Below are positions 30,154 to 30,912 of a stretch of 64,000 bases of DNA, piece by piece (position 1 is the first letter of the stretch; every line of letters starts with the position of its first letter). The translations under genes and the position numbers were made by a program. The DNA is taken from the sequence record NC_024125.2; one strand, 5' to 3'. The DNA comes from Escherichia phage vB_EcoM_112. The notes beneath the pieces were generated by a model. That model worked only from the letters and a program-made list of their open reading frames with translations. It ran no database searches and was not told where the DNA came from.

Positions 30154-30432
30154 TTATTCTTTAAATCTAATCAATTTATTCATAGACTTTGAAACTTCTG
30201 CACGAACCTCATGTAGATTTTTGAGCTGTTCAAGACGCTGCTCATAGTAAGCAATTTCATCTTCTTCGAGACAGTCCTGTGAATCTTCTTTAAGATAACG
30301 TGCATAGTCCTGGAAAGCGTTACGAACTACTTCCTGGAAGTCATCAAGACTTTGAATTTTCTTAGGAGCAACAGATACACGACGAGGGGCAGTATAATAC
30401 TCATAACCAAACCCTGCGCTTAATTGAGCCAT
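30154..30432 (-). CDS. hypothetical small protein
   Basis: Start set at [13 protein letters not shown] (92 aa). Confidence 0.4.
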
Positions 30433-30698
30433 TAGTATTTTTCCTCTGGTTGGAACACTGCGCGGCAAGCCCACATACTGGCTTCTTTGAGTTTCGTTTT
30501 AGCAATAGTTAACTGATCGAGGCTTTCGGCGTAATTCTTCGCGAGTTCATCATCTTCACAGCTATCAAATGCTTCCCAAAATTCATCGTATAAAGCATCA
30601 AAGATAAGTCCTAAACGAACTTCAGCGTCTTTAATAGCATTTACTTTACCGATTTTTTCGTCGGTGTGTGGCTTATAACCTTTAATATCTTCAATCAT
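30432..30698 (-). CDS. hypothetical small acidic protein
   Basis: Start set at [11 protein letters not shown] (88 aa). Confidence 0.4.
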
Positions 30699-30912
30699 AT
30701 TTGACTTCCTCACCAGTGCATAAATCATATTCAACTAAACGAATAGGTTCATGAATGCCATATCCCTGAACAGAAATTTCTGTCGTGGGATAAATTCCAT
30801 CAATATCGCCCATATTCCACGCTTCATTAAATTGCTGTTCACCTGAATTACTAAACCATTCGGCGAAAGCATTTAACACATCTTCAGAGCCTTCAATAAT
30901 TATCTTTGCCAT
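30691..30912 (-). CDS. hypothetical small protein
   Basis: 73-aa acidic ORF, ATGA-coupled to the GrcA-like gene. Confidence 0.4.
   Translation of the reverse strand: MAKIIIEGSEDVLNAFAEWFSNSGEQQFNEAWNMGDIDGIYPTTEISVQGYGIHEPIRLVEYDLCTGEEVKYD

Follow-up and report, generated by a model that had tools for sequence, protein, structure and literature searches.

Early genes of the T4 type beside regB in Escherichia phage vB_EcoM_112 include predicted Acb2 and TadIV-1 nucleotide sponges and the conserved gene vs.5

The DNA analysed here, a 64,000-nucleotide stretch of Escherichia phage vB_EcoM_112 (NC_024125.2; hereafter the window), belongs to a Tequatrovirus, a T4-type myovirus, and carries three small acidic open reading frames (ORFs) beside the endoribonuclease gene regB, all on the minus strand. 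A reading of the same DNA made from the sequence alone had described these ORFs and placed them after regB; the description is accurate and the placement holds in window coordinates, whereas in the direction of transcription all three lie upstream of regB. The genes and sites at issue are as follows.

29633..30094, minus strand: regB endoribonuclease (Pfam REGB_T4, 230.8 bits; 99% identical to T4 RegB)
30122..30150, minus strand: sigma-70-type early promoter of regB (TTTACT-17-TATAAT with TG)
30154..30432, minus strand: vs.3, tadIV-1 by homology (92 amino acids from ATG, pI 5.23)
30432..30698, minus strand: vs.4, acb2 by homology (88 amino acids from ATG, pI 4.56)
30691..30912, minus strand: vs.5, conserved Tevenvirinae protein (73 amino acids, pI 4.05)
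30912..31274, minus strand: vs.6, GrcA-like glycyl-radical cofactor (Pfam Gly_radical, 66.8 bits; 100% amino acid identity to T4)
41093..41548, minus strand: 57B, acb1, cyclic-oligonucleotide phosphodiesterase (tblastn with T4 57B, 99.3% over 152 amino acids)

The three ORFs occupy the position of the vs.3 to vs.8 block of T4, as the sequence-only reading had supposed, and synteny with T4 is maintained gene by gene from tk through vs.8. The minus-strand genes are ordered tk, tk.1-tk.4, vs, vs.1, regB, vs.3, vs.4, vs.5, vs.6, vs.7, vs.8, an internal-protein gene, e and nudE, and collinearity with T4 holds across this gene order except in the internal-protein region. The vs.3-vs.4-vs.5 block is approximately 95% identical to that of T4 at the nucleotide level (42 differences over 858 aligned columns), and megablast with the 851-bp interval matched 533 phage records, the closest among the matches listed being Escherichia phage ECO4 at 98.4%. 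Using tblastn, homologues were found in 719 phage records for vs.3, 1241 for vs.4 and 987 for vs.5, and comparison with a resequenced T4 genome (OZ209057) gave synonymous to non-synonymous codon changes of 3:1, 14:5 and 11:0, respectively. Sequence identity, synteny and purifying selection, along with the conserved ligand residues described below, are direct observations on this DNA. Judged by their sequences, vs.3, vs.4 and vs.5 are genuine genes, far beyond chance ORFs. The ATG starts of vs.3 and vs.4 were chosen because a Shine-Dalgarno sequence is present and because the products match T4 proteins that have been crystallised or assayed; a longer form of vs.3 from a GTG at 30474, 14 codons upstream, and one of vs.4 from a TTG at 30734 were rejected.

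Elsewhere along this gene order, tk.1 and tk.2 (27333-27703, minus strand) are adjacent acidic ORFs of 61-62 amino acids, similar in size to small phage sponges, and are taken to be paralogues because OZ209057 labels the T4 counterparts of both as phrog 653. In vs.8 (31608-32258, minus strand), codon 34 reads TAG at 32157-32159 in place of TAT, interrupting the long form found in T4 (219 amino acids in the reference, 216 in resequenced T4) and leaving a 33-amino-acid ORF and a 179-amino-acid ORF that restarts at ATG 32147; either this phage carries an N-terminal truncation of vs.8 or the internal ATG is the true start. Where T4 has denV, ipII and ipIII between vs.8 and e, the window has a single 157-amino-acid ORF (32288-32761, minus strand), which starts with MKTYQEFITEA, a sequence resembling the capsid-targeting leader of internal proteins, and whose N terminus shares 33% identity with IPII. 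Across the whole window, tblastn detected no homologue of denV, ipIII or ipI.

The genes of the interval are tightly packed, with overlaps of 1 nt between vs.6 and vs.5, 8 nt between vs.5 and vs.4 and 1 nt between vs.4 and vs.3, and the sequence TAATG forms both the vs.6 stop/vs.5 start and the vs.4 stop/vs.3 start overlaps. As the stop codon of vs.6 overlaps the start of vs.5, vs.6 is placed in the same translationally coupled string as vs.5. A Shine-Dalgarno-like purine run precedes the starts of vs.3, vs.4 and vs.5, and is weak for vs.5. No promoter-like or terminator-like site was found on the minus strand between 30151 and 31578, and 28000-33500 contained no Rfam match indicative of a structured RNA. 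The strong early-type promoter of regB lies directly 3' of the vs.3 stop codon, in an interval identical to that of T4, and by its sequence and placement marks the predicted 3' limit of the vs.8-vs.3 gene string. In the study of TadIV-1, Vs.3-Vs.8 were expressed from the vs.8 promoter (PMC13243611). Apparently, vs.5, vs.4 and vs.3 would be transcribed as part of one string that starts upstream, at the vs.8 promoter in T4, and ends before the promoter of regB.

The middle ORF encodes a protein identical at 83 of 88 residues (94%) to the T4 protein crystallised as 'Vs.4' (PDB 7UQ2, E 4.4e-53), and scores 71 bits against the Pfam model Acb2_Tad1_hairpin (PF24729), for which the gathering score is 27. 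Weaker matches were obtained to Acb2 from PaMx33 (8IXZ and 8H2J, E approximately 0.09), with residues 4-85 aligned, and the length of 88 amino acids fits that of the Acb2 family, which is about 90. The suggestion that one of the three ORFs might be an Acb2 orthologue is therefore borne out for vs.4 by the similarity to 7UQ2 and PF24729, while the accompanying idea that another gene had replaced Acb2 at this locus falls, since the middle ORF is itself the orthologue by both identity and the hairpin model. The T4 protein, Vs.4/Acb2, acts as a hexameric sponge, taking up three molecules of cGAMP (PMC10449767), and its KD for 3',3'-cGAMP is approximately 84 nM; other dinucleotides are also bound, while cA3 and cAAG are not (PMC10312549). 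The dinucleotide-contact residues Y8, K23 and F82 are kept in Vs.4 of the window and are invariant in six Tevenvirinae Vs.4 sequences. The Y8A and F82C variants of T4 Acb2 do not bind nucleotide (PMC12657218), and K23 corresponds to K26 of PaMx33 Acb2, a residue whose mutation likewise abolishes dinucleotide binding (PMC10312549). By homology, the middle ORF is an orthologue of Acb2 and a predicted anti-CBASS cyclic-dinucleotide sponge. Vs.4 would form an interlocked hexamer with three cyclic dinucleotides bound, 3',3'-cGAMP and others, and their sequestration would be expected to keep CBASS effectors below the activation threshold. Cyclic trinucleotides, which could be degraded by the Acb1 of this phage (57B), are not expected to be ligands of Vs.4, just as they are not ligands of T4 Acb2. 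Panoptes is triggered when Acb2 sequesters the decoy 2',3'-c-di-AMP (PMC12657218), and activity of Vs.4 should expose the phage to this decoy-nucleotide system.

Five substitutions, E13D, L44F, N46S, C50D and F52L, separate Vs.4 of the window from that of T4. In an alignment with five other Tevenvirinae sequences, residues 2-36 and 70-88 of the protein are near-invariant across five genera and residues 37-69 vary freely; four of the five substitutions fall inside this variable centre, and position 13 alternates between D and E. The clustering of four changes at positions 44-52, and the occurrence in several clades of Acb2 homologues that inhibit type I Thoeris (PMC12393519), might be taken to mean that specificity has shifted towards 3'cADPR, the type I Thoeris ligand, or towards cyclic trinucleotides, instead of or besides cGAMP. 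We regard such a shift as very improbable, as overall identity to T4 Acb2 is high, the ligand-contact N- and C-terminal segments are unchanged, the substituted segment is hypervariable among genera, and the residues held responsible for the exclusion of cA3 by T4 Acb2 (Y37, A57, L60, D61 and T64; PMC10312549) are all unchanged in the window.

Vs.4 proteins at least 99% identical to that of the window occur in 58 phage records. A Vs.4 100% identical to that of the window is found in PV654520.1 (142 kb; Pseudomonas phage vB_PSGBLB0006, host P. aeruginosa), a surprising find in a Pseudomonas phage, for which a mislabelled host or contamination may be the explanation. Homologues of Acb2 that are 67-77% identical to Vs.4 of the window were identified in Phapecoctavirus phages, which belong to an unrelated subfamily, Stephanstirmvirinae (Mt1B1_P17 2495-2770 and 536P1 2501-2761 in the compared extracts), where acb2 sits among other small acidic ORFs. 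The idea that vs.5 travelled together with acb2 was considered and rejected, as the Phapecoctavirus acb2 loci contain neither vs.5 nor vs.3; comparison of the loci suggests that acb2 alone moved laterally into these phages. In Salmonella phage STML-198 (2224-2501 in the compared extract), the match to acb2 is split into two parts that lie in different frames, the annotation there gives ORFs of only 26 and 41 amino acids, and vs.3 is absent; this is an apparent frameshift, arising from either decay or sequencing error.

The 92-amino-acid product of vs.3 is identical to T4 Vs.3 at 91 of 92 residues, and matches phrog_2037 (E 2e-40) and PDB entry 9WIW (E 5.6e-38). Although deposited as 'Endoribonuclease', 9WIW shows TadIV-1 of phage UPEC07 in its apo state, and vs.3, named TadIV-1 in 2026, was identified as the only gene of T4 that inhibits type IV Thoeris (PMC13243611). 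TadIV-1 is a two-helix homodimer, and genetic and biochemical data show that T4 Vs.3 sequesters N7-cADPR without degrading it, with a KD of approximately 216 nM (PMC13243611). A flexible N-terminal loop is required for activity, with homologues of about 70 amino acids being inactive and the long form exceeding 80, and mutational data for the T4 protein point to the importance of R17, R18 and K24 (PMC13243611). Vs.3 of the window is of the long form, its N-terminal residues 1-25 are identical to those of T4, and the ligand-loop residues R17, R18 and K24 (T4 numbering) are all present. Its sole change relative to T4 is T64E, glutamate being the residue of the crystallised and active UPEC07 homologue. 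By homology, this ORF is TadIV-1, a predicted N7-cADPR sponge against type IV Thoeris. The Vs.3 homodimer would trap N7-cADPR by means of its flexible N-terminal loop, and with the signal trapped the caspase-like effector of type IV Thoeris would not be activated. In its distribution vs.3 is patchier than its neighbours, being long in Tequatrovirus and Mosigvirus and short in Kanagawavirus, where the homologue from CIP9 is of the short, 69-amino-acid form, and no vs.3 is present at the loci examined in Dhakavirus, Gelderlandvirus and Klebsiella phages.

Vs.3 and Vs.4 display all of the family features that are open to in silico examination, namely locus, length class, key residues and score against the model, and we infer their oligomeric states, ligand binding and phenotypes from those published for their near-identical counterparts in T4. 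PDB sequence searches returned only Vs.4/Acb2 for vs.4, only 9WIW for vs.3 and nothing relevant for vs.5, and none of the three ORFs had a Tad2 or Tad1-specific Pfam match at E below 0.1. The sequence-only reading had also put forward Tad1 and Tad2 for comparison, which proved unneeded because Pfam and PDB sequence searches place none of the three ORFs in either family; what it had not foreseen was a second sponge next to Acb2, the unrelated TadIV-1 encoded by vs.3. The window also contains acb1 (57B), which is 99% identical to its T4 counterpart, adjoins 57A and lies 10 kb from acb2; the role of T4 57B as Acb1 has been described (PMC10312549). Because acb1 is also encoded in the window, this phage is predicted to carry the full known anti-CBASS pair of T4, Acb1 and Acb2, in addition to the anti-Thoeris-IV sponge. 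The T4 Sequestin sponge (Y16O) was not found in the window when searched for with the published primer sequence.

The third ORF, vs.5, encodes a protein with a net charge of about -12 that is 100% identical to Vs.5 of resequenced T4. The T4 reference (NC_000866) instead annotates a 58-amino-acid Vs.5 of which only the first 17 residues are common to the ORF of the window, and relative to OZ209057 and the window its gene contains a 1-bp deletion and a TA/AT swap (vs.5 lies at 5382-5558 of NC_000866, 3001-3222 of OZ209057 and 30691-30912 of the window in the compared extracts). This truncated annotation, together with the lack of a family, fold or literature match, could suggest that vs.5 is a non-functional, decaying or spurious ORF. 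That possibility is extremely remote given that resequenced T4 encodes the same 73-amino-acid protein as the window, that all 11 nucleotide differences between the two genes are synonymous, and that 985 of the 987 phage records matched by tblastn, which span at least six genera and reach down to approximately 41% identity, contain near full-length homologues with an invariant family motif of F16, W19 and G24-E25-Q26 (F..W....GEQ). Such conservation argues that Vs.5 is the product of a real gene under strong purifying constraint, and that the 58-amino-acid form in NC_000866 probably stems from an error in sequencing or from a frameshift or variant confined to a stock or lineage.

The family to which Vs.5 belongs, phrog_1986, is labelled 'unknown function'. 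Profile searches of Pfam, NCBIfam and the PDB with Vs.5 gave nothing above noise, its AF2 model (pLDDT 80) had no fold match in the PDB, and nothing relevant was found in the literature on Vs.5. A word-indexed search returned 11 close homologues, while a profile search returned 14 cluster representatives out of 1.84 billion, comprising T4-like phage proteins and FG-GAP/VCBS repeat proteins. The latter match only via 'WFxNxGxQxF' and were judged a motif coincidence rather than homologues. In each of four long proteins of the FG-GAP/VCBS type, 7-8 matches to the Vs.5 profile were obtained; they arise from the repeat D-I-A-W-F-E-N-N-G-S-Q-S-F-T-E, similar to residues 16-30 of Vs.5 (FAEWFSNSGEQQFNE), and this is the sole non-phage similarity seen. 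We also noted a predicted protein of 50 amino acids in which an internal-protein-like leader (MLTYQEFITEA) is followed by the last 30 residues of a homologue of Vs.5, probably a product of recombination or deletion in some T4-like phage. The possibility that Vs.5 is paralogous to Vs.3 or Vs.4 and has since diverged was ruled out by an hhalign probability below 1%, and no similarity of Vs.5 to Acb2, TadIV-1 or another solved sponge was detected by sequence, profile or fold.

Vs.5 is small, very acidic and early-expressed by position, its gene is translationally coupled to those of two proven sponges, and in four of the five other Tevenvirinae genera examined vs.5 is the gene immediately upstream of acb2, all of which would be consistent with Vs.5 being the third member of a counter-defence cluster, acting as a sponge or by inhibiting some further defence system. 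We nevertheless consider this unlikely. Apart from the lack of homology to Vs.3, Vs.4 or a known sponge, vs.5 was not carried along with acb2 into the Phapecoctavirus phages, Vs.5 is highly conserved rather than patchy, unlike most counter-defence genes, and T4 Vs.5 was inactive against type IV Thoeris in a study that tested Vs.3-Vs.8 each singly (PMC13243611). Adjacency is also weak evidence for a counter-defence role because the string includes vs.6, whose function is metabolic. Equally doubtful is the broader idea that Vs.5 acts in counter-defence or host takeover by a new mechanism, in which case vs.5, vs.4 and vs.3 would together form a cassette of three genes directed against immune signalling. 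Our own guess, drawn from size, charge and neighbourhood only and offered with low expectation, is that Vs.5 may act as an early host-takeover or counter-defence factor through protein or small-molecule binding. As a conserved small protein encoded between characterised genes, Vs.5 is a reasonable candidate for a defence-panel screen.

Overall, we are highly confident that the interval comprises standard T4 early genes, with vs.4 encoding Acb2, vs.3 encoding TadIV-1 and vs.5 being a conserved gene. All three ORF sequences are already present in public phage genomes at 99% identity or more, the genes have been described before and occur in hundreds of such genomes, and the finding is correct but ordinary. 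On this gene content, the phage is predicted to resist cGAMP-type CBASS and type IV Thoeris and to be sensitive to Panoptes-type decoy systems. The importance of the locus extends little beyond correct annotation, representing the standard T4 toolkit against nucleotide-signalling immunity.

When set beside the characterised systems, Vs.4 of the window shares with T4 Vs.4/Acb2 its locus, its length, 83 of 88 residues, Y8/K23/F82 and the overlap with the start of vs.3, and differs by the five substitutions, none of which is at a published ligand contact and four of which are in the variable centre. PaMx33 Acb2 (8H2J, 8IXZ) is of the same family, and its Y11 and K26 align with Y8 and K23, but identity is only approximately 24% and the second pocket of the PaMx33 protein binds cyclic trinucleotides, which the T4 type does not (PMC10312549). 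For Vs.5, the ORF of the window differs from the 58-amino-acid, frameshifted version annotated in the T4 reference, but matches the profile of PHROG 1986 end to end (E 1e-43) and is identical to the protein of resequenced T4. Vs.3 shares 91 of 92 residues, the long form, the N-terminal loop and R17/R18/K24 with T4 Vs.3/TadIV-1, from which it is distinguished by T64E alone; while this gives it the E64 of UPEC07 TadIV-1 (9WIW), its loop is nine residues shorter than that of UPEC07, as in T4.
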